Source: Deltaproteobacteria bacterium RIFCSPHIGHO2_02_FULL_44_16
GTDB taxonomy: Bacteria; UBA10199; 2-02-FULL-44-16
Direction: 5' to 3'
NCBI GenBank assembly: GCA_001798185.1
Contig: MGRM01000005.1
Span: forward strand, 19,925 to 83,924
DNA: 64,000 nt
Shown here piece by piece: positions 6,106 through 36,427 of the stretch (its first letter is position 1; every line of letters starts with the position of its first letter). Below the pieces are notes generated by a model. That model was not told the DNA's origin and ran no database searches. It worked only from the letters and a program-made list of their open reading frames with translations. Position numbers and translations under genes: made by a program.

Positions 6106-6108
6106 GCG

Positions 6109-8647: not shown

Positions 8648-9084
8648 AACAGGAACTGACGCGGATAGTTCACTATCTTTTTGGTATGTCTGCCGGGAAT
8701 GCTGCTTTTTCTTCCCTGTATGAAGAGAACGTGCATCGCATTTGTGCCGGTTCAAATCCAAGTCCTTTTTCGCATCTGGTATCGAAGGTTGCACTCAAAC
8801 ACCGATTTTTTTTAATGTTGCTCGATCCATGGACTCGTCTTTTTGATCCTAAAAGTCTTCTTCGATGTAAGCTTAATTTTGTAGTGGCATTAGCAGAATG
8901 TGATCCTCTCTTATGCTTGAAACTTCAAAGAAAAACACAAGGAGATATGATTTCTGTGATGATCATCGGTCTCTGGCTCGTCATTCGATGGGCAATGTTT
9001 CTGCTGGTGGGAACTCTTTTGGTAGCATTTTTAAAATGTATTTCGGTGGTGAAACGAAATGAAGCATTCCTTTTTTCACGATAA
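8638..9084 (+). CDS. Hypothetical small membrane protein.
   Basis: This 148-aa ORF fills an otherwise empty 400-bp gap and has a C-terminal hydrophobic helix. No family was recognised. Confidence 0.3.
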   Translation: MGMKQELTRIVHYLFGMSAGNAAFSSLYEENVHRICAGSNPSPFSHLVSKVALKHRFFLMLLDPWTRLFDPKSLLRCKLNFVVALAECDPLLCLKLQRKTQGDMISVMIIGLWLVIRWAMFLLVGTLLVAFLKCISVVKRNEAFLFSR

Positions 9085-13567: not shown

Positions 13568-13597
13568 AAAAAATTAACACTCTTAAAGGAGAAAAGT

Positions 13598-20844: not shown

Positions 20845-22202
20845 TGAATAAATCTCTCAGCATTTTTAATCGAGAAATTGTGTTTACCTTTCTCCGGCTC
20901 GGTACCGGAGCCATCGTGGCACGAAAACTTGGCCCGACCGGCATGGGTATTTGGGCAGCGCTTGATTTGATTGTGAATTATTCTCGTGTTTTTGGAGCTC
21001 CTCGTCTCGAAATCGCGACGGTCTATTTTTGGAGCCAAAAACAATGGAACCGAGGAGAAATTCTTTTTACGGTCAATGTCGTCGGTTTTACGATGGGACT
21101 TTTACTCTGCTTTCTTCTTTCCTTTCAGCATGATTTGTTACGAACTTTTTTTGTAAAAACAAATATTGAACCTTTGCTCATGATCCTTGTTTTTGCGCAT
21201 TTGCCTCTGCGTTTTGTAAAAAGGAATTATCATTACTTTCTTTTGGCCCAAGAGGATACGCAATCTTACAATCGTGTTTTGGTGATTGATGATGTCCTGA
21301 AAGCCATGATCACTATAACGCTTTTACTCTTTTTTGATCTCGGTCTTTGGTCCCTTGCGATTGCGATTCATATTTCAAGCGCATGCGCCTTTGTCTATGC
21401 TGCTGTAAAAGTCCGACGAACTCAGCGTATGGTCGTGCACCATAACGTGAAACTTTTTTTTACGATGCTCCGCTTTAGTATGAAAGTGTATGTCTCGGAA
21501 GCGAGCGGTTTTTTAACCATCTATATCTCCAATTTAATTACCGCTCTTTTCCTTGGTCCTGCTCAGCTTGCTTTTTTTTCCATGGGAAAGGGAAAGGCTG
21601 AATGGTTGAATCGTATCACCAATGCGATTGCGACAGTGCTCTATCCGAGAGTTTCACACCTGCAAGGGAGTGGACAGGATGCCTCGATAACCACAACCGA
21701 TGCTTCACGCATCTCCCTTCTCATCTTATCCGTTGCTGCTTTTTTCTTATCCCTTTTCATTTATCCCGCCACGCTTCTTCTCTATGGTCGGGAATTTAGT
21801 CCTTTGGTGATTGTTTTCTTTCTTATTCTACCGGGTTTTATTTTTCATTCGGTCACGAGTCTGCAGCGACAGTATTTTCTTGGAATTGGAAGAGCTGATA
21901 TTCCGATGAAAATCAATATGATACCTCTCATCTTGCAAGCAACACTTTGCTATCTTTTTATTCCCAAAATGGGATTTATGGGGGGAGCCATTGCTGTATC
22001 GCTGACTCATCTGATGATGTCTGCGATCACGGTTATCGTGTATCGTCGCATGACCGGAATTACCTTTTCACAGCTTTTACTCCCTACGCGAAGGGATAGA
22101 GATTATTTGGTCCAGCTCGTGATGACCAAGCTTCAGATTTTCTTCGACATGCTTCGACGAATGTTTGGAAGAGTTCTTCAGAGTCTTTATGAAAAAGTTT
22201 AA
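20835..22202 (+). CDS. wzx: Wzx-type oligosaccharide flippase (MOP superfamily polysaccharide biosynthesis protein).
   Basis: The 455-aa protein has about 12 predicted transmembrane helices and an N-terminus typical of polysaccharide_synt/Wzx proteins. Confidence 0.65.
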   Translation: MSLVNKSLSIFNREIVFTFLRLGTGAIVARKLGPTGMGIWAALDLIVNYSRVFGAPRLEIATVYFWSQKQWNRGEILFTVNVVGFTMGLLLCFLLSFQHDLLRTFFVKTNIEPLLMILVFAHLPLRFVKRNYHYFLLAQEDTQSYNRVLVIDDVLKAMITITLLLFFDLGLWSLAIAIHISSACAFVYAAVKVRRTQRMVVHHNVKLFFTMLRFSMKVYVSEASGFLTIYISNLITALFLGPAQLAFFSMGKGKAEWLNRITNAIATVLYPRVSHLQGSGQDASITTTDASRISLLILSVAAFFLSLFIYPATLLLYGREFSPLVIVFFLILPGFIFHSVTSLQRQYFLGIGRADIPMKINMIPLILQATLCYLFIPKMGFMGGAIAVSLTHLMMSAITVIVYRRMTGITFSQLLLPTRRDRDYLVQLVMTKLQIFFDMLRRMFGRVLQSLYEKV

Positions 22203-24030
22203 AAAAATACTTCGTTCTCTCAAACGTTCTTTTGTGACGGTCTCACGATTTCTCCGATTTGGAGATAGTCATAAGGTTGTTTTTTTTGAAACGCTCTCTT
22301 CCGAAAATAAAACGTTGCCTTCACGAAGAGATGTTCTGCGCTGGATTTCTCCCATTCTCAAAGAGATGGGGAGAACATTTGTGCGAGCTTACCGAGTTGG
22401 ACTTGGAGAAGCGCATACGCTTCATCCCGATCCGCTTTCCACAGCAGGAGGGGAGAGTTATGGAAAATGTCGAATCGGTTTTACGTACAAAAACGCCTTT
22501 TCGCTTTCCCATGCTCCTCAAGGAAGTGTGTCGCTGAATCTTTCAGATGAGGCTGCCGAAGGAATATACTTTTGGGTCGGGAAAAAATTTATTGAAACCG
22601 GTGATGGACTTTTGGATCTTTTTCTTGAAGGAAAAGATTCCACAAAAATTTTTTCAAAAAAATTAAATGCGCTTCATCACGCATGGGATCTTTTTTATTT
22701 TCCTTTAGCCCAAAAGAGCGGCGAATATAAATTCACGTGGAGTACACAAGGGGAGAAGAAGGATCTTTTACTGACTCCCCCTCTGATCAAACGAAAACAG
22801 GAACGAACTGTTCTTCTTCTCATCGCTGATGCTGTGCGACCTCAAGACATCGGGCTTTATTCAGGAGCTGTTCATACACCGATGCTCGATGCCTATTTTT
22901 CATCAGGAGTTCTTTTTCAAAATAGTTTTGCTCAAAGTAATTGGACGCTTCCGGCCTTTGCTTCGATTGCCACTTCTCACTATGCATCAGAACATGGCGT
23001 GGTCGATCCTGATCGCTATTCGCGTCCCATGGATCGACACGTTCCAACCTTAGGGGAAGTGATGCGCGCTCACGGATTTTATACCTATGGCTCTGTATCT
23101 CATTTTCGCAGTAACCAAGCTTATGGGCATCATCGTGGTTTTGAACACTTTGACTATGCAAGTACGATGCAAGAAAAACCGGGAACCACAGGAGTGGCAG
23201 GACAGAATAATATGCATCGTCAACTTCGGGAACTTTGTGCGTATGTTGACAATCTTCGCGGAGTGAATTTTTTTGGAATGATCCACTTTTTTGATACGCA
23301 TTTCCCCTATTTTTATAATCCCTATCAGCTCAACCAGCATGATCTTCTTTTTCAAAATTCTCTGGAATACTCTGTGCGAAAACCATTCACTCAGCAATTT
23401 ACGGAGGAAGAGTATCGGTATATGCTTCATCAGTATTATACGCGTCTTGCAGAGTTGGATGCTGCACTCGCGCAGCTCTTTTATGTTCTTCGAAACAGAG
23501 AGAACGTCACCGTTCTTTTTATGTCCGATCATGGATATTGTTTTGAGAAATCCCTTGGGCATGATTTGTCCTCTGATGAGATTGCAACTCCTCTTTTCAT
23601 AAGCTCCACTGAATTCAAGCTCGAAGGGGGGAAACATCAGCGCGTGACGCAGTCTTCGGTGGATATCCTGCCGACATTGACAACCCTTTTTGGGATTCAT
23701 GATGTAACTGCGCGCGCGGGAACCTCTCTGTTTGATCGCTCAGGAAAAGTTCTCCAGAAAGAAGTGGCAGTGTCAGAGTTGATCTATCATGAACTCTATC
23801 AAGTACGTCTTATTGGAAAAAAAGGAGCAACACTTTTGTTTGAAACCAAACGTTCTCGTAAGAGTGGAACGATTGAAGTTGACCAACTTTTTATCAAGGA
23901 CAATCGTTTTGACTCCCCCTCAGAAACATCTCTTGAAATGTTCCTTGCCTCTGTAGAAAGTTCAAAACTTTTTCCTTCACTCAAAAAGAAAATGTGTGAA
24001 CTGATTCGTTCTGGAGAGAACTTGCAATGA
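22189..24030 (+). CDS. Sulfatase-like (alkaline-phosphatase-superfamily) protein, paralog 1.
   Basis: LLLIADAVRPQDIGLYSG is the sulfatase N-terminal metal-site motif. At the CxPxR position the protein has TLPAF, that is Thr in place of Cys and no Arg. No transmembrane segment is predicted. Confidence 0.65.
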   Translation: MKKFKKILRSLKRSFVTVSRFLRFGDSHKVVFFETLSSENKTLPSRRDVLRWISPILKEMGRTFVRAYRVGLGEAHTLHPDPLSTAGGESYGKCRIGFTYKNAFSLSHAPQGSVSLNLSDEAAEGIYFWVGKKFIETGDGLLDLFLEGKDSTKIFSKKLNALHHAWDLFYFPLAQKSGEYKFTWSTQGEKKDLLLTPPLIKRKQERTVLLLIADAVRPQDIGLYSGAVHTPMLDAYFSSGVLFQNSFAQSNWTLPAFASIATSHYASEHGVVDPDRYSRPMDRHVPTLGEVMRAHGFYTYGSVSHFRSNQAYGHHRGFEHFDYASTMQEKPGTTGVAGQNNMHRQLRELCAYVDNLRGVNFFGMIHFFDTHFPYFYNPYQLNQHDLLFQNSLEYSVRKPFTQQFTEEEYRYMLHQYYTRLAELDAALAQLFYVLRNRENVTVLFMSDHGYCFEKSLGHDLSSDEIATPLFISSTEFKLEGGKHQRVTQSSVDILPTLTTLFGIHDVTARAGTSLFDRSGKVLQKEVAVSELIYHELYQVRLIGKKGATLLFETKRSRKSGTIEVDQLFIKDNRFDSPSETSLEMFLASVESSKLFPSLKKKMCELIRSGENLQ

Positions 24031-25442
24031 CCGATATTCCCCTGTGTGTCGATCTCGATGGGACACTTTTAAAGACTGATACCTTGGTCGAAGGTTTTCT
24101 TGCTTGTCTCAAAAAGAAACCGTTATCGTTGGTGCAAGCTCCATTTTGGTTGTTTAAAGGCAAAGCTGTCCTGAAACGAAAAATCTTTGAAACGATTGAG
24201 CTCAACCCCCATGTGCTTCCTTACCATCTCGATTTTTTAGACTATCTTCACGGAGAATATGAAAAGGGAAGGAAGCTCATTTTAGCAACTGCTGCGCATG
24301 AACGTATTGCAACTTCTATTGCGCAGCATCTCAATATTTTTTCCGAAGTATTTTCGACGAATCACACAAACTTAAAAGGTTCTTCTAAATGTGAAATATT
24401 GGAAAAAAGGTTTGGAAAGAAAAAGTTTGGATATGCAGGAAATGCTCACATTGATCTTTTGGTTTGGAAAGAAGCTGGAGAGGGTATTGTCGTCAACGCA
24501 TCACCTCGGTTATTACAAAAGGCGGAAAAAATGACCTCTGTGGTTAAATTTTTTCCTCAAAAAAGAGGAACTTTTTTGAAAATCTTGAAGGCCATGCGTC
24601 TTTATCAATGGGTGAAAAACTTGCTTGTTTTCATTCCATTGATCTTGGCTCATCGCGTTACAGAGATTTCACTTTTTCAAGATGCTGTGGTTGCATTTTT
24701 TTCTTTTGGACTATGTGCCTCGAGTGTTTATCTTTTAAATGATTTGCTCGATTTGGAAGCAGACCGTCTTCATCCCCGAAAACGGCTTCGTCCTTTTGCT
24801 TCCGGAGAACTGAGCCCTTGGATCGGTATTTTCTTCATTCCGCTTCTTTTGATAACGAGTTTTCTCACTGCGCTCACACTTTCGATCTGGTTTGTCGTTA
24901 CGCTTGGGATTTATTATGTGCTGACACTTTCTTATTCTCTCTATTTGAAACGCATTCCTCTGATCGATGTCGTGTTACTGGCGATGCTTTATACGCTTCG
25001 TTTGATTGCGGGGATTGCGTCAGTGCATGTTCCCATTTCGCCGTGGCTTTTTGCCTTTGCGCTCTTTTTCTTTTTAAGTTTAGCGCTTGTAAAACGATCT
25101 TCGGAATTAACGATGATGCAAAAAGAAAACCTGGAGAGTTCACTTGGTCGTGGCTATCGACCAGATGATTTAGAACTCCTGACCATGATGGGAATCTCCA
25201 GCGGATTTCTTTCGGTTTTGGTTTTGGCGCTCTACATTCACAGTGAAGATGTTTCAGTTTTATATGCGCAGCCAATGTTTCTCTGGCTTATCTGTCCTTT
25301 CTTCCTTTATTGGATCGGACGTATTTGGTTTTTGACGCGAAGAGGAGGAATTCCTGACGATCCCATTCTTTTCGCGGCGAAAGATAAAATAAGCTATGTG
25401 ATTGGGAGTTTTATCTTTTTTATTCTCTATGTGGCATCATGA
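24027..25442 (+). CDS. Fusion of an HAD-like phosphatase domain with a UbiA-family polyprenyl-phosphate phosphoribosyltransferase (DPPR synthase / Rv3806c-like).
   Basis: The N-terminal CVDLDGTLLK is HAD motif I. The C-terminal YQWVKNLLVF...YLLNDLLDLEADRLHPRKRLRP carries the UbiA NDxxDxxxD motif. Confidence 0.75.
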   Translation: MTDIPLCVDLDGTLLKTDTLVEGFLACLKKKPLSLVQAPFWLFKGKAVLKRKIFETIELNPHVLPYHLDFLDYLHGEYEKGRKLILATAAHERIATSIAQHLNIFSEVFSTNHTNLKGSSKCEILEKRFGKKKFGYAGNAHIDLLVWKEAGEGIVVNASPRLLQKAEKMTSVVKFFPQKRGTFLKILKAMRLYQWVKNLLVFIPLILAHRVTEISLFQDAVVAFFSFGLCASSVYLLNDLLDLEADRLHPRKRLRPFASGELSPWIGIFFIPLLLITSFLTALTLSIWFVVTLGIYYVLTLSYSLYLKRIPLIDVVLLAMLYTLRLIAGIASVHVPISPWLFAFALFFFLSLALVKRSSELTMMQKENLESSLGRGYRPDDLELLTMMGISSGFLSVLVLALYIHSEDVSVLYAQPMFLWLICPFFLYWIGRIWFLTRRGGIPDDPILFAAKDKISYVIGSFIFFILYVAS

Positions 25443-26758
25443 AAAATGATTCTGAAGTTCTTGAATCCTGGGGACGCAACCCACAGATTCAGCAATCATC
25501 GACTTCTCTTCATTGGAGAAGTGATATTCACTTTTCTTCAGAGAAGAAGATGTTGCCTTACGGAATGGGGCGAAGTTACGGTGATGTCTGTCTCCATGAA
25601 GGAGGACTTCTTCTGAAGACGAGAGGACTGAATCGTTTTTTAGAGTTCGATGCAGAAGAGGGGAGATTGATCTGCGAAGCAGGTGTCTCTTTTGAGGAGA
25701 TTCTCGATTTTGCTGTTCCTCGAGGGTGGTTTCTTCCGGTAACTCCGGGAACAAAATATGTGACGGTCGGTGGTGCGATTGCAAATGATGTGCATGGCAA
25801 AAACCATCACCGTGCAGGATCATTTGGTTGTCATGTCGTTCGTTTTGAACTGTTGCGTTCTGATGGAACGCACCTTCTTTGTAGTCAGACTGAAAATACT
25901 GATTGGTTTCGGGCCACGGTGGGAGGTTTAGGTCTTACCGGTGTTATTACCTGGGCTGACATTCGTCTCAAAAAAGTTGTCAGTCCCTTTATTCGTCAAG
26001 AAACGGTTCCATTTCGTTGTGTCGATGATTTTTTTGCACTTTCTGCTTCGAGCAATCGCGATTTTGAATACACCGTCGCCTGGATCGATTGTTTGGCGAA
26101 GGGGAAAAATCTTGGACGAGGTATTTTTATTCGTGGAAATCATGCAGAAATGAACTCAACAAAAAAGAATCCAAAGAGAAAAAAACCGACATGGAGTATT
26201 CCATGTCAGATGCCTTCTTTTCTTTTGAATCCATTGACGATCAAAGTTTTCAATGGAATGTATTATTTTTCTCAATGCTGGCGAAAAGATTCAAGGCTTG
26301 TTCACTTTGATCCTTTCTTTTATCCGCTCGATGCCGTGAAATGTTGGAATCGTCTGTACGGCCATCGCGGCTTTTTTCAATACCAGTGTGTTGTCCCTCC
26401 GCAGACAGCGCCAGAAAATATACGGCGTCTTCTCGACAAAGTTTCTCATTCAAAGCAAGCATCCTTCCTTTCCGTGTTGAAACAATTCGGTTCGCTTCCT
26501 TCTCCGGGAATGATGTCCTTTCCCCGAAAAGGAGTGACTCTTGCTATGGATTTTCCCAATCGTGGTATCAAAACTTCTCAACTTCTTCATCAACTGGATG
26601 ATATTGTGCAGAAAGTGGGAGGAGCTGTCTATCCGGCGAAAGATGCCTGTATGTCGCGTACCTCCTTTGCTGCTTATTATCCACGATGGAAAGAGTTTGC
26701 ATCGTATATTGATCCCCAGTTCTCATCCAGTTTCTGGAAAAGAGTGAAAGGTGAATAA
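25439..26758 (+). CDS. dprE1: Decaprenylphosphoryl-beta-D-ribose 2'-oxidase-like FAD oxidoreductase (DprE1 homolog).
   Basis: Conserved blocks GRSYGD, GTKYVTVGGAIANDVHGKNHHRAGSFG, ATVGGLGLTG, FYPLD, WNRLYGHRGFFQYQCVVP and GGAVYPAKD match DprE1 closely. Confidence 0.85.
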   Translation: MKNDSEVLESWGRNPQIQQSSTSLHWRSDIHFSSEKKMLPYGMGRSYGDVCLHEGGLLLKTRGLNRFLEFDAEEGRLICEAGVSFEEILDFAVPRGWFLPVTPGTKYVTVGGAIANDVHGKNHHRAGSFGCHVVRFELLRSDGTHLLCSQTENTDWFRATVGGLGLTGVITWADIRLKKVVSPFIRQETVPFRCVDDFFALSASSNRDFEYTVAWIDCLAKGKNLGRGIFIRGNHAEMNSTKKNPKRKKPTWSIPCQMPSFLLNPLTIKVFNGMYYFSQCWRKDSRLVHFDPFFYPLDAVKCWNRLYGHRGFFQYQCVVPPQTAPENIRRLLDKVSHSKQASFLSVLKQFGSLPSPGMMSFPRKGVTLAMDFPNRGIKTSQLLHQLDDIVQKVGGAVYPAKDACMSRTSFAAYYPRWKEFASYIDPQFSSSFWKRVKGE

Positions 26759-26764
26759 ACTTTC

Positions 26765-26823
26765 GTCATCCCCGCTTACGCGGGGATCTCATGAGATTCC
26801 CGCTTCCTGCATGCGGGAATGAC
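26765..26823. repeat. Double-hairpin palindromic repeat element, family 1, full copy.
   Basis: The sequence is gtcatccccgc-ttac-gcggggat ctcatg agattcccgc-ttcctgcat-gcgggaatgac. It lies intergenic between the dprE1-like and dprE2-like genes. Its ATG (26791) creates a spurious upstream ORF start. Confidence 0.7.
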
Positions 26824-26841
26824 AACCATGCGAGTGCACAT

Positions 26842-27576
26842 ATGAAAAATGTTCTGATTCTTGGCGCAACCTCTGCAATCGCTCACGAAGTAGCGAAGCT
26901 CTATGCTGATGAGCAAGCTCATCTCTTTTTGGTCGCAAGAAATGAATTCAAACTGGAAACAATCGCAAAGGATTTAATAGTACGAGGAGCAAAAGTAACA
27001 TCAGGTGTGGCGAACTTTCACGATTTTTCATCGCATCCAAGACTTCTTGAACAGATAAAAGAAAAACTTGGAAATATCGATGTGGTTCTTCTTGCCTATG
27101 GTTCTTTAGGGAATCAAGCGGAGAGTGAAAAGAATATCTCCGTTGCGCTTCAAGAAATAGAAACCAATTTTTTGACCGCATTTTCTCTGCTCTCTTTACT
27201 TGCTCATATCTTGGAAGCTCAGGGGAGTGGAACTCTTGCCGTGATCTCTTCTGTTGCTGGAGATCGTGGTCGTCAAAGTAATTATATCTATGGAACCGCA
27301 AAGGGGGCGCTCAATATTTTTTTACAGGGTTTGCGTAATCGTCTTTATAAAAAAGGAGTTCATGTGTTGACCATTAAACCCGGTTTTGTCGATACTCCTA
27401 TGACAACGCATCTCAAAAAAGGATTTTTATTTTCTTCTTCTCAAAAAGTGGGAAATGATATTTATAAAGCGATAGAAGAAAAAGAAGACGTCCTGTATAC
27501 TCCTCAATTTTGGAGAGCGATTATGTTTGTGATTCGAAATATTCCGGAAGCTCTTTTTAAAAGGCTCAACCTATGA
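26842..27576 (+). CDS. dprE2: Decaprenylphosphoryl-2-keto-ribose reductase-like SDR (DprE2 homolog).
   Basis: ILGATSAIA, AVISSVAGDRGRQSNYIYGTAKGALNIF and AIMFVIRNIPEALFKRL match DprE2 blocks. The real start is the ATG at 26842; the 26791 ORF start lies inside the repeat. Confidence 0.8.
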   Translation: MKNVLILGATSAIAHEVAKLYADEQAHLFLVARNEFKLETIAKDLIVRGAKVTSGVANFHDFSSHPRLLEQIKEKLGNIDVVLLAYGSLGNQAESEKNISVALQEIETNFLTAFSLLSLLAHILEAQGSGTLAVISSVAGDRGRQSNYIYGTAKGALNIFLQGLRNRLYKKGVHVLTIKPGFVDTPMTTHLKKGFLFSSSQKVGNDIYKAIEEKEDVLYTPQFWRAIMFVIRNIPEALFKRLNL

Positions 27577-29780
27577 AAAATTTTTTTCTCCTTCTCTTCG
27601 TTCTGATTTCTGCCTGCAAAATAAGTTGCGCCGCCAATTTTACAGATGAATCTCTTTCTGAAAATAGCCAATCTTCCAGCCAACCTTCTGAGGTCGATGG
27701 GCAAAAATGTTTTTATTATCGTGATCAGGACCTTGATAGGTATGGCGATCCCCTGTCTGTGCTTGAAAATTGTTTTCCTCCTTCGGGTTATGTTGAAAAT
27801 GCGGATGACTGTGACGATAATGATGCTCAAGTGTTTCCAAAGCTTTGGTATTTAGATGCTGATGGCGATAGCTATGGAAATCCGTCACAAACGCTCAGAA
27901 GTTGTAATCCTCCCTTAAAGTATGTGCAAAATGCTACGGACTGCGATGATGCCGATGCTGCTATATCACCCAAAACTATTTGGTACGCTGATAAAGATGC
28001 GGATGGATTTCTGGGAAGAACGATTTCGTGCGCAAAACCAGAATCTTTTGTCCCTCAACTTGTTTTCATTCCAGAAGAGAGTATTGACTGTGATGATACG
28101 AAGAATGCAGTTTATCCGGGAGCGTTTGAATATATCGATCACATTGACCAAAACTGTGACGGAAAAATAAGAACTCTTTATTTAAAAGATATTTCTCCTG
28201 ACCATGTTTTTCATGGTGCTGAAAGAGGAGATAATACAGGTTTTGATCTTGCAGCAGGAGATTTTGATGGAGATGGATACGATGATATGTTGATCAGCGC
28301 TGTCTTTGCGGGATCTGACCTGAAAGGAAAAATTTATCTCATCTATGGAAAGCCTTCTCTGATACTTGATCAAGCTGATGCAACCCTTGTCGGAGAATTT
28401 TCAAATGATCATGCCGGTCAGTTTCTCTCCACATCTGGCGATGTGAATGCCGATGGTTGTGTCGATTTTCTGATTGGTGTTCCTGAATATTCAGATACCA
28501 TTCTGCAACGAGGGAAAACGTATCTCATTTATGGAAGTGGAGCCCGTTGTGCTTTTCCCCAACGATTAACAGGAACGAATAGTCTGACGTCTGTGGGCGC
28601 CGTCGGTGGAATTTCGGGCGCTACTTTTCTTGGAGTCAACAGAGAAGATTACAGCGGAGCAGATATTGCATCAGCGGGAGATATTGATGGAGATGGAAAG
28701 GACGATCTCCTTATTGGCGCGTATGGAGCAGATGCAACGGCGAATGCTTCCGGAAAGGTCTATCTTGTTTATGGAAAAGCGTTAAACGATGTGACCTGTA
28801 TGGATGGAACAAATCCCCATCAGATGAATCTGTCGATCCTGGAAACAGCGGCTGATGCACATTGTGGCCATGAGATTCTTGGCGAGGGAGGAGGAAGTCT
28901 CTTTGGAATTACATTAGCAGGAGTAGGGGATGTGAATCAAAATGGAACCGATGATCTCTTTATCGGTGCTTATGGTTTTAATCCGGATCCAAATCAGACC
29001 CAACCCGCGTACCAATATCAAGGAAAAGCTTACCTTTTTGATTTTGGAATCCTCGGAACGCCTGCAGGACAAAATATTCCGAGACGAATTTTTGCGAGCA
29101 CCGATACGAAGGCTTATTTTGGTGGATTTGCTTTGACTGGCTTAGATGATTGGCGTTCCTGTGCGAGTACTATTTCTGCTTTAGGAGATACGGATGGGGA
29201 CAGCGCCAATGACTTTATGCTGGGATGCTATGCGCTTGATAATCGAACCATTCAGATGCCGGATTCAGGCGGTGTGTATGTGATGTATGGTGGTGAGTAC
29301 ACGGGTGATATAGCGTCCGATGCTCTTTTTCTTCTTGGCACAGAGGATAATGGACAGCTTGCCCAGGAAAATCTTGCCTCTGGAGGAAATGTCAATCGTG
29401 ATGCTTTCGCTGATATTCTCATTGGTGCTTCGAGAGTGAACGGAGGGACATGGCCTGGAAAGTATGAAGCGGGAAAAACCTATTTGATCCTTGGCCGGAG
29501 CCGTGTTGATTTCGCAGCCGCGTATACGAATCAATTTTTAGATAATGTTGATCTCACCTTCAGAGAAGTCGGAGGGTTCGAATTTCTTGGGGAAGAGAGA
29601 TATGACGAAAGTGGTGCTGGTTTGGCAAGCGGTGATTTTGATGGCGATGGAGATACAGATATTCTCATCGGTGCTCCTGGGGATGAAGTGAATAAACTGT
29701 ATAAACATCAGAATTTTGAATCTCAGGCAAATCCACCGCGACCTGGAAAGGTTTATTTTGTTGAATCCAGGTATGAATAA
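27573..29780 (+). CDS. FG-GAP repeat lipoprotein with N-terminal cysteine-containing CDD repeats.
   Basis: A lipobox (LISAC) is followed by three DCDDxDAxxxP repeats. Multiple FG-GAP/Ca-binding DxDGDG motifs follow (DFDGDGYDDMLIS, DIDGDGKDDLLIGA, DFDGDGDTDILIGAPG). It overlaps the dprE2-like gene in an ATGA junction. Confidence 0.7.
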   Translation: MKNFFLLLFVLISACKISCAANFTDESLSENSQSSSQPSEVDGQKCFYYRDQDLDRYGDPLSVLENCFPPSGYVENADDCDDNDAQVFPKLWYLDADGDSYGNPSQTLRSCNPPLKYVQNATDCDDADAAISPKTIWYADKDADGFLGRTISCAKPESFVPQLVFIPEESIDCDDTKNAVYPGAFEYIDHIDQNCDGKIRTLYLKDISPDHVFHGAERGDNTGFDLAAGDFDGDGYDDMLISAVFAGSDLKGKIYLIYGKPSLILDQADATLVGEFSNDHAGQFLSTSGDVNADGCVDFLIGVPEYSDTILQRGKTYLIYGSGARCAFPQRLTGTNSLTSVGAVGGISGATFLGVNREDYSGADIASAGDIDGDGKDDLLIGAYGADATANASGKVYLVYGKALNDVTCMDGTNPHQMNLSILETAADAHCGHEILGEGGGSLFGITLAGVGDVNQNGTDDLFIGAYGFNPDPNQTQPAYQYQGKAYLFDFGILGTPAGQNIPRRIFASTDTKAYFGGFALTGLDDWRSCASTISALGDTDGDSANDFMLGCYALDNRTIQMPDSGGVYVMYGGEYTGDIASDALFLLGTEDNGQLAQENLASGGNVNRDAFADILIGASRVNGGTWPGKYEAGKTYLILGRSRVDFAAAYTNQFLDNVDLTFREVGGFEFLGEERYDESGAGLASGDFDGDGDTDILIGAPGDEVNKLYKHQNFESQANPPRPGKVYFVESRYE

Positions 29781-30648
29781 ACCTTCAGTGTTAGTCTCCA
29801 TTCTGGCTTATAATCATTTCGATGATTTAATAGAAACGATTCGATGCTTGAAGGCTCAATCCTACAAAGATTTTCATCTTCAGGTGATTGATAACGCATC
29901 CACTGATAATATCGTCCCGAGATTAAAAGAAATCTATTCTGATATTGATGTGATTCAACTGACAAAAAACAGAGGATATACCGGTGGAAACAATGTTGCG
30001 CTCGAAAAAGGTTTTCAACAAGGATATGAATATACCTTCATTCTCAACGATGATATTTCGGTTGAAGTCAATTTTCTCGCGCATCTTATAGAGACGGCAA
30101 AAAGCGATGTTGATTGTGGAGTTGTGGGCGTTATTGAAGAAGATTTTTATACAGGAAAAATAAGAACAATCGGGGGAAGTTCATTTCATTTTCGAAGGGC
30201 GCGAGGGCAATGGTTGAAAGATATTCCAAAATTAGCATCGAACTCTTTACAGGTGGATTATGTTCAAGGCGCTGCTCTTCTGTTTACTGCACGTGCTTTA
30301 GCGCAAGGAATTCGATTTGATGAAAAACTTTTTATGTACTGTGAAGAGATCGATTTGGGATTTCAACTGCGTGAAAAGAAACTCAAAGCTCTTGTGGATC
30401 TGAGAACTCGAGTACGACATAAATCAGTTCCCGGGAAATGGAATTCTTTTCAAGCGTATTATCTTCAACGCAATCGGCTCTATTTATGTCGCAAGTATGG
30501 TTCGCGTGCGATTTTTTTTCAGGCCTGTTGTTATATGTGCTTTATTGAGTTGCCGCTAAAGATGGTGTTGAGAACGCTTCAGGGTCATCCTCGTTTTGCG
30601 TGGGCTTGCGTTCGAGGATGTAAAGCCGCTGTAGAAAATAATATATGA
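29773..30648 (+). CDS. GT2 family glycosyltransferase.
   Basis: VSILAYNHFDDLIETIRCLKAQSYKDF...VIDNASTD is a GT-A signature. Confidence 0.75.
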   Translation: MNKPSVLVSILAYNHFDDLIETIRCLKAQSYKDFHLQVIDNASTDNIVPRLKEIYSDIDVIQLTKNRGYTGGNNVALEKGFQQGYEYTFILNDDISVEVNFLAHLIETAKSDVDCGVVGVIEEDFYTGKIRTIGGSSFHFRRARGQWLKDIPKLASNSLQVDYVQGAALLFTARALAQGIRFDEKLFMYCEEIDLGFQLREKKLKALVDLRTRVRHKSVPGKWNSFQAYYLQRNRLYLCRKYGSRAIFFQACCYMCFIELPLKMVLRTLQGHPRFAWACVRGCKAAVENNI

Positions 30649-32060
30649 TGAAGACACAACATGCAATTCGGATACATCCTGCGGTATTTGTTTATGTATT
30701 AGCGTTTGTTTCTCCATTTGCGATTTATGGAATTGGTATCGGTGAAGTTGGTTTTACGCCGATCAATTTTTTGAGTATTCTTTTTTTTCCTGCTTTTCTG
30801 ATGTTCTTTTTATTTAAGAATTGGTCATTAAAAAATTTAACTCTCGTGGGAGTTCTTCATCTTGCATATTTTGTTTTTGCATTTCTTGCTTCTGCATTTG
30901 CGACGAAACATATGGCAGCTGTCAGAGGGTCCGTTGGATATCTAATTGATTTTTTTCTCTGTTACCTTTTTGCCGTTTATTTTATTCAAGAAGAAAAACA
31001 GATTCGAACGGTTCTGAAAATATTTATTTTTGTAGGCGCTGTGAATGCCGTCATGGGACTCGTACAATTTGGTGGATTTTTCTTTTTTGGAGAAATGATT
31101 GCTCCTCCTTTTGTTCATTTCTTTCATGAAGAAGTCTCTACGAAAAATTTTGGCTATGGAACAGGCCTCTTCTCTATTGCTGGATTTATGAAGATGTATG
31201 GATTTTTAGGAGCAGGCTCTGATGCTTTTGGGGGATACACGCTCATTTCTCTCGCTTTTTCGATGTACTTTTTCCAAAGAAAAAAGAATTTTTTCTACGC
31301 TTTTCTTATCGTATTTTTTGGAATCACTTTATTGCTCAGTTGTGCGCGTAACGCGTATGTGGGAACACTTTTCTTTTTTCTTTTCCTCTATTTTTTTTAC
31401 CGTCCTCTCAAGGAAAAAATATTTCAACGCATCTTCAAGGTCTTTAGCCTCGTTTTCATTGTTATTTTTCTTGTGGGGGGGGGTTATATCACACAGAACA
31501 TGAAGGCCTTTGAAAGCGCAGAAATTCAGGTTTCAGCCACTTCTGCATATAAAACGCCAATTTTTTTACTTCAAAGAGTGAATCCTTTTGCTTCTGCGAG
31601 CTTTCAAATCTCTCTGGTCGATTTTTTTTGGGGACATCTCAAATATGCACTTGTTCATGGTTTTGATAATTTTGGTTTAGGGATGGGATTGCAAAATTTT
31701 GATGACTATGTCTCTGCAATCTATGGAGTGAAATATGGATCTCATTCAGACTTTATTTTGACGCTTGGAGGAAGTGGTTATATTGGGCTCCTGATTCAAA
31801 TGTTGATCATTTTTTGTACCATACGCTATGGTCTTAAGGCCTACTATCAACAGCCTCGTGAAAATATAGATTCTCTTCCACTCTTTTTAACAGCATTATT
31901 TGTGGGAATGGTAGCGATTGGAATCGTCAGAACGTTTTACTTCGTTCCCTATAATTTTCTTATCATCGGATTGATTGTCAGATTGTATACGATAAAAGCG
32001 AATGAGTATCGAGAAGCTGGCGCTATACAATCCTACAACAAAAAGAAAAACGGAAAATGA
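30645..32060 (+). CDS. O-antigen ligase / Wzy-type polymerase family membrane protein.
   Basis: The 471-aa protein has about 10-12 predicted transmembrane helices and a Wzy_C-like central region. Confidence 0.5.
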   Translation: MMKTQHAIRIHPAVFVYVLAFVSPFAIYGIGIGEVGFTPINFLSILFFPAFLMFFLFKNWSLKNLTLVGVLHLAYFVFAFLASAFATKHMAAVRGSVGYLIDFFLCYLFAVYFIQEEKQIRTVLKIFIFVGAVNAVMGLVQFGGFFFFGEMIAPPFVHFFHEEVSTKNFGYGTGLFSIAGFMKMYGFLGAGSDAFGGYTLISLAFSMYFFQRKKNFFYAFLIVFFGITLLLSCARNAYVGTLFFFLFLYFFYRPLKEKIFQRIFKVFSLVFIVIFLVGGGYITQNMKAFESAEIQVSATSAYKTPIFLLQRVNPFASASFQISLVDFFWGHLKYALVHGFDNFGLGMGLQNFDDYVSAIYGVKYGSHSDFILTLGGSGYIGLLIQMLIIFCTIRYGLKAYYQQPRENIDSLPLFLTALFVGMVAIGIVRTFYFVPYNFLIIGLIVRLYTIKANEYREAGAIQSYNKKKNGK

Positions 32061-33221
32061 TGCCATGTTTGTCGAGAGTGGGATATGGTGAAATAAAAAA
32101 GGAAGCCAGATGACAAGACAATGAATTGTCAGAAGAGATATTTTTTCTTTTTTCCCAAAACGTAAAGAAGGAGCCAGTAAAAAAGGAAGAGCGATCCAAA
32201 AAAGAGGCCAACCATAGGCCATGAGGCGAAAACCTCCGGGTCCCAAAACAGGACCAAGAATGAATGAAAAGAATCCGTAGAAAAAAAGAATAAAAAATCC
32301 AAGAGGCATTTTTCGAAGGGCGTGAGAACGTAAGAAAAAAAGAAGAAAAAGCGGCCCAATACCAAAAACTGTCAGCAATGATATCAATGTGTGCAGAGGT
32401 TGCGAAAAATCAAAACCACAAAAACCGATGTTTTGAATTTTTCCAAAAGTGAGCCAAGCAGGAAGAGTTTTTGTAAAAGAAGGTGAACAGTAATCGAGTG
32501 TATTGGTCCAGATATTGAGTCCTAAAAAATTACCGCAAAAATTAAAAATCATTTTTGCAGGGATATAAAAGAGATTTGAAAGCTGGTGTTTGTTCGGAAG
32601 TCCATGATGGCTCAAATATCCCGAGAGCAGCATGCTTCCGAGCGAAATAAAAATGGTGGTTGCAGCTAAAGTCCACCGCTTGTGAAAGAAAAAACAAGCT
32701 GTCAAAACCAACGAAAGAAGAAGTGTTGCTTCTCGTGTGAGAAAGAGAGGGATGAGAAGCAAGAGCGCAAGAGAGTACTTTTTCTTTACGAGCAAGAAAG
32801 AAAAAAAAGCAACTTCAACGCCGTAAAAAAGATCATGCAATTCGTAATCATAAAACATTTGACTGAGAGCCGGTGTCAGGAGGAGAGGGATGGCCGTCCA
32901 TGCCGGCAAATCTGCTTGCTTTATGAAGTAGGTCAGAAGAAAACAAAAGAAAAAGAGGTTGATCAAAGCAATAAAAAAAAATGATTTCCAAAGCTCAAGG
33001 GAAGTCAGTGCTGAAAATGCTTTTACGAAATAGGGATGAAGAATTCTTTTATTAAAAGGTTGGGGAACATCTGATATTTCCCCCTTTGCGATATGCGTAT
33101 AATATTTTCCGTCAGGCATTTTATAGATTGGATTGATGTGAGGAAGTTTATTCCATGAAACAAGAAACGTCGCCAAAAATAGAGTGAAAGAGATGAATCC
33201 TATTGATGCAAGCCTTTTCAT
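31896..33221 (-). CDS. Polytopic membrane protein, possibly a GT-C fold glycosyltransferase that uses a polyprenyl-phosphate sugar donor.
   Basis: This is a 441-aa ORF with about 11 hydrophobic helices and an acidic YDYELHD motif after the first helices. It is the only minus-strand gene in this part of the locus. Its 3' end overlaps the convergent gene by 165 bp. Confidence 0.5.
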   Translation of the reverse strand: MKRLASIGFISFTLFLATFLVSWNKLPHINPIYKMPDGKYYTHIAKGEISDVPQPFNKRILHPYFVKAFSALTSLELWKSFFFIALINLFFFCFLLTYFIKQADLPAWTAIPLLLTPALSQMFYDYELHDLFYGVEVAFFSFLLVKKKYSLALLLLIPLFLTREATLLLSLVLTACFFFHKRWTLAATTIFISLGSMLLSGYLSHHGLPNKHQLSNLFYIPAKMIFNFCGNFLGLNIWTNTLDYCSPSFTKTLPAWLTFGKIQNIGFCGFDFSQPLHTLISLLTVFGIGPLFLLFFLRSHALRKMPLGFFILFFYGFFSFILGPVLGPGGFRLMAYGWPLFWIALPFLLAPSLRFGKKEKISLLTIHCLVIWLPFLFHHIPLSTNMASFSVFLFVVGLYSASFSILIRFYRIQSDNQSDDKKIIGNEVKRSDDSNRYHSHK

Positions 33222-33306: not shown

Positions 33307-34500
33307 ATGAAAATACTCCTCCTTACTTCTGGTATTCTCCCCGACACGCACAGTGGTATTGCAAAAGTCGCCTATTATACAGGACGAGAATTGTGTGAGA
33401 GTGGCCATCAGGTGGTTGTTTTAACACGGCGTTATAAGGAGCATCATGCAGTCACTGAGGAAATCAACGGAATGCATTATTATCGTATTCCTTATCCCGA
33501 TCGATGGGGAGTTTTTCATGTGACGTGGCCTCTGGTTGCTGCCGTCAAATCATGGATATGGCAAAAGCGGATTCACCGCATTCATCCGGATGTGGATGCG
33601 GTCTGGATTTTGAACCCATGGTGGACGTTGTTGCTCAACCCTCGTAAACTTTGGCCCCGTGCAAAGCTTATCTGTCAATTTTATGGGAATCCGTATGATG
33701 AAATCACCGCAAATAATGGCAAGACGTTCAAAGCTCGTCTTTTTGCACGACTCTACATGGCGGTTTCAAAACAGTGTATGCGTCTCTCTCATTATGTGGC
33801 GATGCCAAGTCAATTTGCCTATGATGACGCTGTTGCCATGATGGGGGCAAATGCCCAAAAAAAATTAGTTCTTATTCCGCATGGTGTGGACGTTGATTGT
33901 TATCGGACTGCATCGTCAGAGGAAAAACAGGATTTAAAGAAAAAACTTCAGTTGCCACATGACAGGCCCATCTTTATAACAGCTCGAGGGCTTAAACGTC
34001 GAACGGGAGTGGATAAACTCATTACCGCTGCATCTCTTTTAAAAAAAGAGGGATTCCTCTTTTATCTTGTGGTGATTGGAAAGGGCCCCATGAAAGAAGC
34101 CATTCAACAACAGATTCAGGCTCTGCGTCTCGACGATTCCGTAACATTGTTAAGTGATCTTTCCGAAGAAAAACTTGCAGCGTATTATCGAGCGAGTGAT
34201 GTTTTTGTCCTTCCCACACAAGCAGCTGAGGCTTTCGGGCTTGCAACGATTGAAGCCATTGCAGCAGGGCTTGTTGCGTTTGGCACGAACAATGGCGCAA
34301 CTCCAGAAATCCTCAACCGTTATCAGCCGGAATGGATTATTCCGGGAAGTGATGAAAAAAGTATTTATCATAAAATGAAAGAATTTTGTCGGGATCCGCA
34401 AAAGTTTACGATCCCTTATGAGGATATGAAAGCGATCACGGCCAAACATTATAGTTGGACAAGTGCAGCAAAGAAATTTGCTCATACTTGTTCCCATTGA
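33307..34500 (+). CDS. GT4 (GT-B) family glycosyltransferase.
   Basis: The C-terminal EAFGLATIEAIAAGLVAFGTNNGATPEIL is a GT1/GT4 donor-binding motif. Confidence 0.75.
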   Translation: MKILLLTSGILPDTHSGIAKVAYYTGRELCESGHQVVVLTRRYKEHHAVTEEINGMHYYRIPYPDRWGVFHVTWPLVAAVKSWIWQKRIHRIHPDVDAVWILNPWWTLLLNPRKLWPRAKLICQFYGNPYDEITANNGKTFKARLFARLYMAVSKQCMRLSHYVAMPSQFAYDDAVAMMGANAQKKLVLIPHGVDVDCYRTASSEEKQDLKKKLQLPHDRPIFITARGLKRRTGVDKLITAASLLKKEGFLFYLVVIGKGPMKEAIQQQIQALRLDDSVTLLSDLSEEKLAAYYRASDVFVLPTQAAEAFGLATIEAIAAGLVAFGTNNGATPEILNRYQPEWIIPGSDEKSIYHKMKEFCRDPQKFTIPYEDMKAITAKHYSWTSAAKKFAHTCSH

Positions 34501-34510
34501 AATAAACAAA

Positions 34511-36427
34511 ATGTATTATTTCTTTCAGAAAAAATGGAGATGGTTCAAAAAGCACCTTATCGGTTGTTATCGATTACTCCGATATGGATCTTTCGAAAAA
34601 GTTGCATTTTTTGAGATCACGACTCCTGAAAATATTTTTGGACCTTCATTTTTTGACTTTATTGCTTGTATCCCCCGTGTTCTTCAAGAGATGGCATGGA
34701 CCTTGGTTCGGACATATCAAACAACATTTTGGGAATCCTGCGTTCTGAAGCCCGATCATCTCTCTCGTCCTTTTGAAGGAGATTATGGAAAGTTTCGAGT
34801 GAGAAGCATTTATAGGAATGCTTTTTCCCTTTTTCACTCACGTTGCGGGAAAATACATCTCGATCTTGCAAATGATTCGGATGCGGAAGGTTTTTATTTT
34901 TCTATTGGAAAACAATTTATCACAATGAAAAAAGGCGTTTTGGAAATTTTTCTTGAAAGCGATGGAAATTCAACCAAAATATTTTCGAAACCCTTACAAA
35001 TGCTTCGTCATAATTGGAACTGGTTCTATTTTTCTTTGGATACTTTGAAGAACATCTCCAAGCACTCTCATTATATTGGCGCAAAATATGATTTTAGGTG
35101 GAATCTTAGCGAGAAAAAGAGAAAGGTATTTATTTCTACGCTTATAATCAAAAGAAAAAAACAAGAAAGAATTTTCCTTCTTCTTGTTGCTGATGCTGTG
35201 CGTCCATCAGATATAGGACTGTATGGTCAATCCTCTTTGACCCCTCATCTCGATACATTTTTTTCTTCGGGTGCAGTTTTCCGAAATAGTTTTGCGCAAA
35301 GCAATTGGACTCTTCCTGTCTTTGCCTCTCTAGCAACGTCTCAATATGCTTCACAGCACGGGGTTGTTGATCCAGACATCTACTTGCGATGTCTTCCACC
35401 TCATGTTCCGACATTAGCGGAACTTATGCGTGCAAATGGTTTTTTTACATATGCTTCTGTGGCACACCATCGTTGCAATCATTCCATTGGTCACCATCGA
35501 GGTTATGAATATTTTGATTATTCGCAAACAGTAGAGGTGAAATATAACTCCATGGGAATCCCTGGAAAAAATAATATGTACCGGCAACTTCAAAACCTTT
35601 GTGCGCGATTGGATAATTTCCGTGGCGCTGATTTTTTTGGAATGGTTCATTTTTTTGATACACATATTCCTTATCTTTATAATCGTAATGAACTTAATAC
35701 ACGTCATCTTCTTTTTCAGAAATCAGTGGACCAATGTGTCATGGAATCCCTTTCTCATAAATTGAAAGGAGAAGAATATCACTATCTTCTTTATAGATAT
35801 CAGATGCGATTAGCTGAGCTGGATCAAGCTCTTCTCAAAGTATTTAGGATCCTTAAAAAAAGAGAGAAAGTAACTGTCATTTTTATGTCGGATCATGGTT
35901 TTTCTTTTGAAAATCCGCTTGCTTGGGATTTGTCTTTTGATAAAATCGAAACTCCCTTTTTAATCCGCTCCAATGAGTTTGATCTTCAACGAGGAATACA
36001 GAATCGTATGGTTGAGTCTTCGCTTGATGTTCTTCCAACAATAACAAACCTTTATAATATCCAAGATTCTGTTCTGCGATCTGGAACTCCTTTATTTGAT
36101 CATGTGGGGAAAATAATATTAAAAGAATATGCAATTTCAGAGCACGTCTATGACGACATTTATCAGTTGCGTCTCATCGGAAAAGAAAAACTCTCCCTTC
36201 TTTTTGAAACAAGCCGACATCGAAAGACAGGATCAATTGATATTGATGGAATGAGGTTGAAAAACTGTTGTTATCAAGGACTTTCACCGAGTATCGGGAA
36301 CCATCTCTTTTTAAGTTTTCTTGAAAAAGCCAAGCTTCCATTTTCTTTAAAAAAGAAATTACAACAACTGATCAGTCAAAATGCACTTCAAGATCAACCT
36401 GAAGTTGCAAGTGAAGGAGCTCTATGA
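34511..36427 (+). CDS. Sulfatase-like (alkaline-phosphatase-superfamily) protein, paralog 2.
   Basis: It is collinear with paralog 1 (LLLVADAVRPSDIGLYGQ, SNWTLPVFASLATSQYASQHGVVDPD, FFGMVHFFDTHIPY). The start was moved to the ATG at 34511. Confidence 0.65.
   Translation: MYYFFQKKWRWFKKHLIGCYRLLRYGSFEKVAFFEITTPENIFGPSFFDFIACIPRVLQEMAWTLVRTYQTTFWESCVLKPDHLSRPFEGDYGKFRVRSIYRNAFSLFHSRCGKIHLDLANDSDAEGFYFSIGKQFITMKKGVLEIFLESDGNSTKIFSKPLQMLRHNWNWFYFSLDTLKNISKHSHYIGAKYDFRWNLSEKKRKVFISTLIIKRKKQERIFLLLVADAVRPSDIGLYGQSSLTPHLDTFFSSGAVFRNSFAQSNWTLPVFASLATSQYASQHGVVDPDIYLRCLPPHVPTLAELMRANGFFTYASVAHHRCNHSIGHHRGYEYFDYSQTVEVKYNSMGIPGKNNMYRQLQNLCARLDNFRGADFFGMVHFFDTHIPYLYNRNELNTRHLLFQKSVDQCVMESLSHKLKGEEYHYLLYRYQMRLAELDQALLKVFRILKKREKVTVIFMSDHGFSFENPLAWDLSFDKIETPFLIRSNEFDLQRGIQNRMVESSLDVLPTITNLYNIQDSVLRSGTPLFDHVGKIILKEYAISEHVYDDIYQLRLIGKEKLSLLFETSRHRKTGSIDIDGMRLKNCCYQGLSPSIGNHLFLSFLEKAKLPFSLKKKLQQLISQNALQDQPEVASEGAL

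Follow-up and report, generated by a model that had tools for sequence, protein, structure and literature searches.

A 64,000-nt stretch of the metagenome-assembled genome (MAG) of Deltaproteobacteria bacterium RIFCSPHIGHO2_02_FULL_44_16 (GCA_001798185.1; contig MGRM01000005.1, positions 19,925–83,924, forward strand), here called the window, contains at 24027–27576 three consecutive genes for homologs of the mycobacterial enzymes that make the lipid-linked D-arabinofuranose (D-Araf) donor, embedded in a surface-glycan locus. The arrangement raises the question of whether the three gene products would form such a donor here and, if so, which protein uses it and on which acceptor. We favour, with a probability of about 0.7, the view that the region is a cytoplasmic module making polyprenyl-phosphate-linked D-Araf and that it belongs to a three-component pentofuranosylation system, of the arabinose type, as described in kind by Kelly et al. 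2024 (PMC11127046), including transfer of the sugar to a surface glycan by a GT-C-fold glycosyltransferase. Family membership, conserved catalytic residues, GT-C fold and gene context are documented below; the sugar made, its lipid carrier, the flippase, the GT-C enzyme used and the acceptor are predicted from them.

The three enzymes and their predicted product

The first gene (24027–25442, + strand) encodes a 471-residue fusion protein. Residues 1 to about 175 correspond to a HAD-type phosphoribose phosphatase (PRP) and residues from about 181 to 471 to a UbiA-family polyprenyl-phosphate 5-phosphoribosyltransferase (PPPRS), with eight predicted transmembrane (TM) segments in this C-terminal part (Pfam UbiA, 4e-20, and HAD, 3e-5). 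Among the NCBIfam models PRK08238 is matched at 623 bits (cutoff, 351) with an end-to-end alignment (residues 2–471 to model positions 10–480 of 482), the decaprenyl-phosphate phosphoribosyltransferase (DPPRS) models score 148–153 bits and those of heme/quinone prenyltransferases 50 bits at most, while the top PDB match is M. tuberculosis Rv3806c (8j8j; E, 6e-27). The motif NDLLDLEADRLHP is present. In an alignment of 119 homologs the HAD motif residues D9, D11, T88, K121 and D143 and the PPPRS residues N238, D239, D242, D246, R357 and E360 are conserved at levels of at least 90–100%, with 99–100% for D9, N238, D239, D242, D246, R357 and E360. The latter seven correspond one by one (7/7), with a constant offset of 9, to D18, N247, D248, D251, D255, R366 and E369 of C. 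youngae ORF15, which were mutated by Kelly et al. 2024 and shown to be necessary. In ORF15 the UbiA (PPPRS) domain moves ribose-5-phosphate from phosphoribosyl pyrophosphate (PRPP) to polyprenyl phosphate, and the HAD (PRP) domain then strips the 5′-phosphate (PMC11127046). Polyprenyl-phosphate-ribofuranose formed from PRPP is the predicted product of the fusion enzyme.

The second gene (25439–26758, + strand) encodes a 439-residue homolog of the FAD-dependent polyprenyl-phospho-ribose 2′-oxidase DprE1, with no signal peptide. It matches the NCBIfam DprE1 model NF053785 with 368 bits, the family ranked next reaching 46 bits, and M. smegmatis DprE1 (PDB 4aut) with an E-value of 4e-69 over 389 residues (38–426), the next family being found at 5e-10. 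When aligned to the M. smegmatis enzyme, it retains the FAD-site and active-site motifs GRSYGD, HGKNHH and QYQ (as FFQYQ), and the catalytic Lys of Y-x-AKD (VYPAKD, within GGAVYPAKD; M. tuberculosis K418). We regard it as a clear DprE1 homolog that falls beyond the actinobacterial ortholog threshold. An Ala (in GVTLAMDFP) occupies the position of Cys387, the benzothiazinone target of M. tuberculosis DprE1, so that benzothiazinones are predicted not to inhibit the protein; the Cys is not a defining feature of the family.

The third gene (26842–27576, + strand) encodes a 244-residue homolog of DprE2, the 2′-keto reductase of the short-chain dehydrogenase/reductase (SDR) type. NCBIfam PRK07102 is matched at 310 bits (cutoff, 267), with FabG at about 71 bits, and the top PDB match is DprE2 (21gq_C; E, 4e-35, full length), with the next SDR family at 1e-16. 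The Ser-Tyr-Lys triad is intact (SSVAG...YGTAK), and the motif AVISSVAGDRGRQSNYIYGTAKGALNIF is found in the product of the longest open reading frame (ORF), which starts at 26791 and is 261 residues long. The ATG at 26842 is the more probable start because it fits the homologs and two automatic gene calls (244 residues in loci L002 and L003). The choice affects the spacing between the genes, which the initial annotation took to be translationally coupled throughout. This holds for ubiA and dprE1, where an ATGA overlap is found, as is also the case between the preceding sulfatase-family gene and ubiA, and between dprE2 and the following FG-GAP gene; dprE1 and dprE2, however, are separated by 32 nt (start at 26791) or 83 nt (start at 26842) and are not coupled. 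The spacer between them (26759–26841) contains the palindrome CCCCGCTTACGCGGGG (26770–26785) and a second short hairpin. A copy of the palindrome with one mismatch lies at 53920–53935, in an aminotransferase–transketolase spacer, with 0 matches expected by chance. This GC-rich sequence, CCCCGCT(T/G)ACGCGGGG in its two intergenic sites, could represent a REP-like element of small size or else a hairpin that stabilises the transcript.

Taken in order, the PPPRS domain would transfer the ribose-5-phosphate group of PRPP onto polyprenyl phosphate, with undecaprenyl phosphate as the expected carrier; the fused N-terminal HAD domain would remove the 5′-phosphate; the DprE1 homolog, the FAD enzyme, would oxidize C2′ of the ribose; and the DprE2 homolog, the SDR, would reduce this keto intermediate, giving the arabino configuration. 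The lipid-linked Araf would then be flipped to the periplasm by a candidate transporter, and a GT-C enzyme, most probably the 441-residue protein encoded at 31896–33221, would move it onto a surface glycan made by the Wzx/Wzy route. In mycobacteria the 5′-phosphatase step is carried out by a separate, unrelated PAP2-type enzyme, Rv3807c. Here the fused HAD domain provides it, so that the donor pathway is complete with three genes; completeness had been proposed before, and it stands, but it rests on this phosphatase domain, which had been overlooked. The ORFs and motifs on which the initial annotation was built were all recovered, and so were the identities it gave: the best solved-structure matches of the three proteins are their mycobacterial namesakes (6e-27, 4e-69 and 4e-35), the DPPRS, DprE1 and DprE2 models rank first among named functions in NCBIfam, and neither profile nor PDB searches returned generic UbiA, alditol oxidase or FabG as the best family. 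Synthesis of polyprenyl-phospho-D-Araf by the trio is, in our view, very probable.

The module had been thought to be reported only sporadically outside Corynebacterineae, a view that is now outdated. Kelly et al. 2024 found such pentofuranosylation systems to be widespread, with DprE1/DprE2 homologs beside the three core components for every Araf-containing glycan for which a genome was available (PMC11127046). The HAD-UbiA fusion itself is very common (7943 of 8000 scored candidates at E ≤ 1e-20), with about 50%-identical members in Beggiatoa, Acidithiobacillus, Methylomonas, Pedosphaera and acidobacterial genomes. Among 50 informative metagenome loci, i.e. those whose sequence extends at least 2.5 kb downstream of the HAD-UbiA homolog, a DprE1 homolog is found in 31 (directly downstream in 28) and a DprE2 homolog in 28. 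The recurring order HAD-UbiA, DprE1, DprE2 (28/50) points to a selected functional unit, and the trio of the window is a typical member of a known, abundant module rather than a sporadic oddity. Two relatives depart from this order and were of no help in finding the GT-C enzyme. The HAD-UbiA fusion most closely related (P0014, 56% identity) is found by itself, with no DprE1/DprE2. At L087 (10001–14120) a single SDR epimerase and a 492-residue multi-TM protein, instead of DprE1/DprE2, come after a close HAD-UbiA relative (52% identity), an arrangement that Kelly et al. tied to xylofuranose (Xylf; the C. youngae O2 type; PMC11127046). A terminase gene lies 1.2 kb upstream, so that the L087 locus may be prophage-borne.

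Three characterized systems help to place the module. The C. youngae O1/O2 clusters (ORF15, ORF14, ORF12) share with it the HAD + UbiA-type PPPRS fusion as first enzyme, the polysaccharide-cluster setting, and the logic that leads from PRPP to polyprenyl-phosphate-ribofuranose, optional epimerization, flipping and GT-C transfer. They differ in using a single SDR (ORF13) where the two-enzyme DprE1/DprE2 epimerase is found here, in encoding the four-helix transporter ORF14, which has no counterpart in the window, and in their GT-C enzyme: the 441-residue GT-C of the window is shorter and lacks a C-terminal carbohydrate-binding module. Mycobacteria and corynebacteria (Rv3806c, Rv3807c, DprE1 Rv3790, DprE2 Rv3791, Rv3789, Emb/Aft) have homologous phosphoribosyltransferase, oxidase and reductase, the same route from PRPP to lipid-linked D-Araf, and GT-C consumers; the carrier is decaprenyl phosphate there and presumably undecaprenyl phosphate here, and Emb/Aft orthologs, Rv3789 and the arabinan polymerization machinery are not present in the window, where the context is of the Wzx/Wzy type. 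In P. aeruginosa Pa5196/PA7 (PsPA7_6246–6249 and TfpW) a Gram-negative DPPRS/DprE1/DprE2 set with a cytoplasmic DprE1 feeds a GT-C enzyme, and the attachment of D-Araf to pilin depends on the trio homologs (Villela et al. 2020 preprint). No HAD domain is fused to the PPPRS of P. aeruginosa (PMC11127046), and a GtrA-like protein and a pilin acceptor belong to that system, whereas no pilin or tfpW-like gene is found in the window.

Candidate transferases, a collinear relative and flippases

Downstream of the trio the genes are as originally described, namely an FG-GAP lipoprotein gene joined to dprE2 by ATGA, a GT2, a Wzy-like protein and a convergent polytopic membrane protein. The lipoprotein (27573–29780, + strand) is a secreted 735-residue protein with the lipobox ISAC, MopE-type Cys-rich motifs and FG-GAP β-propeller repeats (Pfam FG-GAP, 6.5e-35; Cu-binding_MopE, 2e-12). 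The GT2 gene, a Leloir-type glycosyltransferase of the locus backbone (Pfam Glycos_transf_2, 4e-15), is present as claimed, but its start is probably at 29773 (29773–30648, + strand) and not at 29716. The Wzy/O-antigen-ligase-like protein (30645–32060, + strand), also of the backbone, has nine predicted TM segments; it has no match in Pfam, nor in Pfam/NCBIfam at relaxed thresholds, and Wzy_C is present in its L007 ortholog (46% identity). This gene and the polytopic-protein gene (31896–33221, − strand) converge and share 165 nt (31896–32060), so that one stretch of DNA encodes, on its two strands, the last TM helices of both proteins.

The polytopic protein (441 residues) had been put forward as a candidate GT-C arabinosyltransferase. 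The fold was borne out, with a confident GT-C prediction; the link with arabinose is inferential, with no trio near any of its 71 genomic homologs. The protein represents an unclassified family, with no sequence match in Pfam, NCBIfam or the PDB, also at relaxed Pfam/NCBIfam thresholds, just 12 relatives in a word-indexed protein search, and a best match of 37% identity among the GTDB representative genomes scanned. By hhalign, its family has no significant relation to the multi-TM proteins adjacent to HAD-UbiA in L086 and L087, nor to the second GT-C protein of the window, and no sequence relation could be detected with the GT-C-like proteins found beside other HAD-UbiA genes. That second protein (514 residues; 12023–13567, + strand), which had gone unnoticed before, is also a confident GT-C, with no PDB sequence match at E ≤ 10 and none in Pfam/NCBIfam at relaxed thresholds. 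It is probably served by a donor module of its own, made up of a GT2 (9724–10575), a YdjC deacetylase (10526–11404) and a methyltransferase (11376–12050). The resulting block (9724–13567) resembles the ArnC/ArnD/ArnT system for undecaprenyl-phosphate-L-Ara4N in combining a polyprenyl-phosphate-sugar-synthase-like GT2, a YdjC-type deacetylase and a GT-C enzyme, although the sequence matches are weak, with no family cutoff reached, and the methyltransferase is extra.

On comparative grounds the 441-residue protein is the most likely Araf transferase. It is the only GT-C of the window without its own donor module, and a 47-kb JGI contig (L012, L007), collinear gene by gene with window positions 1 to about 43,500 at 35–68% identity, encodes its ortholog and lacks the trio. 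Around the trio, two replacements set the loci apart. In the window the order is flippase, sulfatase, [HAD-UbiA, DprE1, DprE2, FG-GAP lipoprotein], GT2 (55% identical to that of the relative), Wzy, GT-C (convergent) and GT4, where brackets mark the variable genes; in the relative it is flippase, sulfatase, [pyruvate-kinase-like], GT2, Wzy, [246-residue GT2, 308-residue protein, 329-residue SDR], GT-C (convergent), [DUF4215/choice-of-anchor-Q secreted protein] and GT4. The three bracketed genes that follow Wzy in the relative (L007, 11220–13865) have no counterparts in the window. The four best NCBIfam matches of the 246-residue GT2, weak (1e-9 at best), are AglJ, Dol-P-hexose transferase, PgfS and ArnC, all of them polyprenyl-phosphate glycosyl synthases. 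For the 308-residue protein the match is MtdL, an NDP-pyranose mutase of family GT75 (7xpr; E, 1e-15), and it takes in the region of the DDD motif; MtdL converts GDP-L-fucopyranose and GDP-L-galactopyranose to their furanose forms (PMC9937993). The SDR has GDP-L-fucose synthase (Fcl-like) as top match (1e-26). The block of GT-C, SDR, GT75 and GT2 is found again in L014, another ‘Deltaproteobacteria’ MAG (11244–13912; 68–79% identity), and, in a looser version with STELLO/GT75-like, GT2, GT-C and Wzy_C proteins, in the Saccharimonadales MAG L076 (5206–7043). The SDR/GT75/GT2 module of the relative may thus be a pathway to a lipid-linked L-fucofuranose (L-Fucf) or L-galactofuranose (L-Galf) donor.

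Each of these loci would then place one furanose-donor module beside an orthologous GT-C, with the D-Araf trio in that role in the window. D-Araf, L-Galf and L-Fucf are alike in ring configuration, as follows from standard carbohydrate stereochemistry, which makes one transferase accepting either donor plausible, and we are inclined to accept this pairing of module and enzyme, if with some reserve. GT-C donor promiscuity, for ribofuranose and Xylf, has been described by Kelly et al. 2024 (PMC11127046). A wider proposal, which we put forward only tentatively and consider rather doubtful, is that the 441-residue protein stands for an unclassified family of donor-flexible furanosyltransferases, that related strains diversify one glycan by swapping donor modules (the trio against the SDR/GT75/GT2 set of L007, L014 and L076), and that PF03706 proteins are the usual flippases.

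As to flipping, the only flippase candidates encoded in the window are two Wzx-like proteins. One is a MOP-family protein encoded two genes upstream of the trio (20835–22202, + strand; Pfam Polysacc_synt_3, Polysacc_synt, MurJ) and conserved in the collinear relative; the other is encoded at 43934–45433 (Pfam Polysacc_synt, Wzx_EPS). The small transporter of mycobacteria is Rv3789. A small four-helix transporter, ORF14, belongs to the C. youngae system (PMC11127046), and the corresponding P. aeruginosa component is the GtrA-like PsPA7_6247, for which, in PAO1, the unlinked ArnE/F can substitute, the flippase function being partly redundant (Villela et al. 2020 preprint); by extension, an unlinked flippase is plausible here. 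A further lead comes from PF03706 (LPG_synthase_TM, MprF-flippase-like): a protein of about 320 residues belonging to this family is encoded beside the trio in about a third of the metagenome loci that have it, 10 of about 30 (L086, at 14798–15751, L090, L096, L103, L108, L116, L122, L138, L143 and L152), another follows the GT75/GT2 furanose module of L014 (13967–14953), and a UbiA-PF03706 fusion is found in Methylomonas paludis (P0056, 793 residues). PF03706 proteins are, therefore, candidate flippases for lipid-linked furanose donors, unlike the small transporters described so far.

Points against and alternative explanations

Several observations weigh against the D-Araf donor reading or against the part assigned in it to the 441-residue GT-C. 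The DprE1 and DprE2 homologs, at 368 and 191 bits, do not reach the equivalog cutoffs of NF053785 (500) and NF053786 (250), both of which are tuned to actinobacteria. The 441-residue GT-C gene is four genes away from the trio and on the opposite strand; tblastn found the trio within 10 kb of its homologs at none of 71 genome loci, and HMM profiles of both GT-C families of the window found no member in 82 other HAD-UbiA loci, even at E ≤ 1. In Acidobacteriaceae, which account for the bulk of the 71 loci (L018–L084, e.g. L041, L059, L068 and L082), the approximately 30%-identical homolog is a conserved single gene, and its neighbours are dxr, rseP and the genes for methionyl-tRNA synthetase, YajQ, a thioesterase and a polyprenyl diphosphate synthase that carries a B12-binding domain. 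This setting suggests a housekeeping envelope function for this branch of the family. No free-standing multi-TM ORF of less than 220 residues, as expected for a small GtrA/SMR/ArnE-like flippase, was found in the 64-kb window by two hydropathy scans (the ORF at 8638–9084, of 146–148 residues, has one C-terminal TM segment only), and no PF03706 gene adjoins the trio, the only one on the contig being distant, just past the window end, in an inositol-phosphate/CDP-alcohol operon. Finally, the host is known as a MAG only, from an uncultured groundwater lineage (Rifle aquifer).

With respect to the donor, it might be argued that the trio consists of generic enzymes (a quinone/heme prenyltransferase, an alditol/lactone oxidase and a FabG-like reductase) with no role in pentofuranose metabolism. 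Pfam alone returns just the generic UbiA, FAD_binding_4 and adh_short domains, and in GenBank the trio proteins, which occur in the MAGs RIFCSPLOWO2_02_FULL_44_10 and RIFCSPHIGHO2_02_FULL_44_16, are labelled ‘hypothetical protein’ or ‘FAD-linked oxidase’. This identity is, however, contradicted by subfamily models and by structure-sequence searches, which place the three proteins in the DPPRS, DprE1 and DprE2 clades with a lead over generic families of 16–59 orders of magnitude in PDB E-values, so that it is scarcely credible. A subtler objection accepts the phosphoribosyltransferase and supposes that the DprE1/DprE2 homologs are not arabinose-forming, with the module yielding lipid-linked ribofuranose, a 2-keto-pentofuranose or another epimer. 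The scores below the equivalog cutoffs, the only moderate identity to mycobacterial DprE1/DprE2, and the finding that other SDR epimerases steer the same precursor to Xylf (PMC11127046) speak in its favour; set against them, the oxidase/reductase pair is specifically DprE1/DprE2-like with intact catalytic residues, it is strictly co-inherited with PPPRS in 28 of the 50 informative loci, and the equally distant P. aeruginosa homologs do make D-Araf (Villela et al. 2020 preprint), which leaves this outcome quite improbable, if less so than that of generic enzymes.

If the trio does make the D-Araf donor, its user and its acceptor may still differ from those that we propose. The arabinosyltransferase could be the 514-residue GT-C or yet another GT-C of this genome, with the 441-residue protein using another lipid-linked donor. 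The 514-residue protein has ArnT (second-best) and AftB among its top structural matches and, after TM1, a D32-x-x-E35-x-x-Y38 segment that resembles, as a resemblance only, D31/E34/Y35 of the GT136 enzyme ORF12 (conserved residues D31, E34, Y35, H106, R349 and Y350; Kelly et al. 2024, PMC11127046), and the 441-residue family is never associated with the trio at the 71 and 82 loci mentioned above. The gene of the 514-residue protein lies, however, 10.5 kb upstream of the trio, in the ArnC/ArnD/ArnT-like block with its own donor; the whole of this block is conserved in the relative that lacks the trio, and without the trio the 441-residue GT-C would have no donor module in the window. We consider this assignment unlikely. 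About as unlikely, in our judgement, is a protein acceptor, in which case the GT-C would O-arabinosylate the FG-GAP/MopE lipoprotein as TfpW, a GT-C enzyme, arabinosylates the pilin encoded next to it (Villela et al. 2020 preprint). The lipoprotein could serve as an acceptor: its gene shows translational coupling with dprE2 and is part of the variable insert missing in the collinear relative, which in turn has a different secreted Cys-rich protein (DUF4215/choice-of-anchor Q) directly beside its GT-C, and a Ser-rich linker follows the lipobox. On the other hand, no FG-GAP homolog accompanies the trio in the 82 other HAD-UbiA loci, where tblastn searches for the FG-GAP protein, as for the Wzy-like and GT-C proteins, found nothing; the genes around the trio form a classical Wzx/Wzy/Wzz polysaccharide set; and Kelly et al. 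found a polysaccharide side-chain position to be the acceptor in every case that they analysed (PMC11127046). A lipid-linked D-Araf donor used by the 441-residue GT-C on the Wzx/Wzy-made glycan is, therefore, the explanation that we retain.

The glycan locus and its significance

The placement of the trio in a surface-glycan supercluster, part of the original description, was confirmed, and the cluster is of the Wzx/Wzy type. The window is a near-continuous, same-strand run of glycan-biosynthesis genes, which include nonulosonic-acid genes, ATP sulfurylase, APS kinase, a sulfotransferase, several methyltransferases and rml genes, together with the two Wzx-like flippases, the Wzy-like protein, a Bac_transf initiating transferase, Wzz and Wzi. 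By exact sequence, it is found on a 141-kb metagenome contig and in the two GenBank MAGs named above, both from the Rifle aquifer. It is a large Wzx/Wzy-type glycan cluster, and from the sulfation, methylation and nonulosonic-acid genes the product is predicted to be heavily decorated. At 3405–8647 a pyruvate-kinase-like/PUA/ATP-sulfurylase fusion, APS kinase, a GMC oxidoreductase and the sulfotransferase lie within the cluster, and these genes lead to the prediction of a sulfated surface glycan in a groundwater MAG. Two paralogous (about 50% identical) proteins of the sulfatase/alkaline-phosphatase superfamily are encoded at 22165–24030, translationally coupled to the ubiA fusion gene, and at 34463–36427; both have an N-terminal region of about 210 residues without predicted TM helices. 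They are found near genes for a CDP-alcohol phosphatidyltransferase, a GAPDH-like protein, a HAD protein and a nucleotidyltransferase, which suggests a glycerol- or glycerate-phosphate-like phospho-substituent on the glycan. No tRNA genes were found in the window, and no compositional island surrounds the trio (GC, 0.42, compared with 0.38–0.46 across the window), so that, except for the break in synteny with the relative, there is no sign of recent horizontal insertion.

Our understanding of the pathway itself is unchanged by these results. The module extends the PRPP-based extracytoplasmic pentofuranose route to an uncultured groundwater lineage and, given the frequency of the operon in environmental metagenomes, D-Araf is probably a far commoner bacterial surface sugar than structural databases suggest. 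The PF03706 lead bears on the flippase for lipid-linked pentofuranose, a question shared with mycobacteria. The unclassified GT-C found beside either of two furanose-donor modules offers a case in which the exchange of donor modules can be tested, and is a candidate for a new CAZy family. Should the donor-flexible reading be true, the pathway would be the first to a lipid-linked L-hexofuranose donor, and the exchange would be a natural instance of isosteric donors replacing one another.

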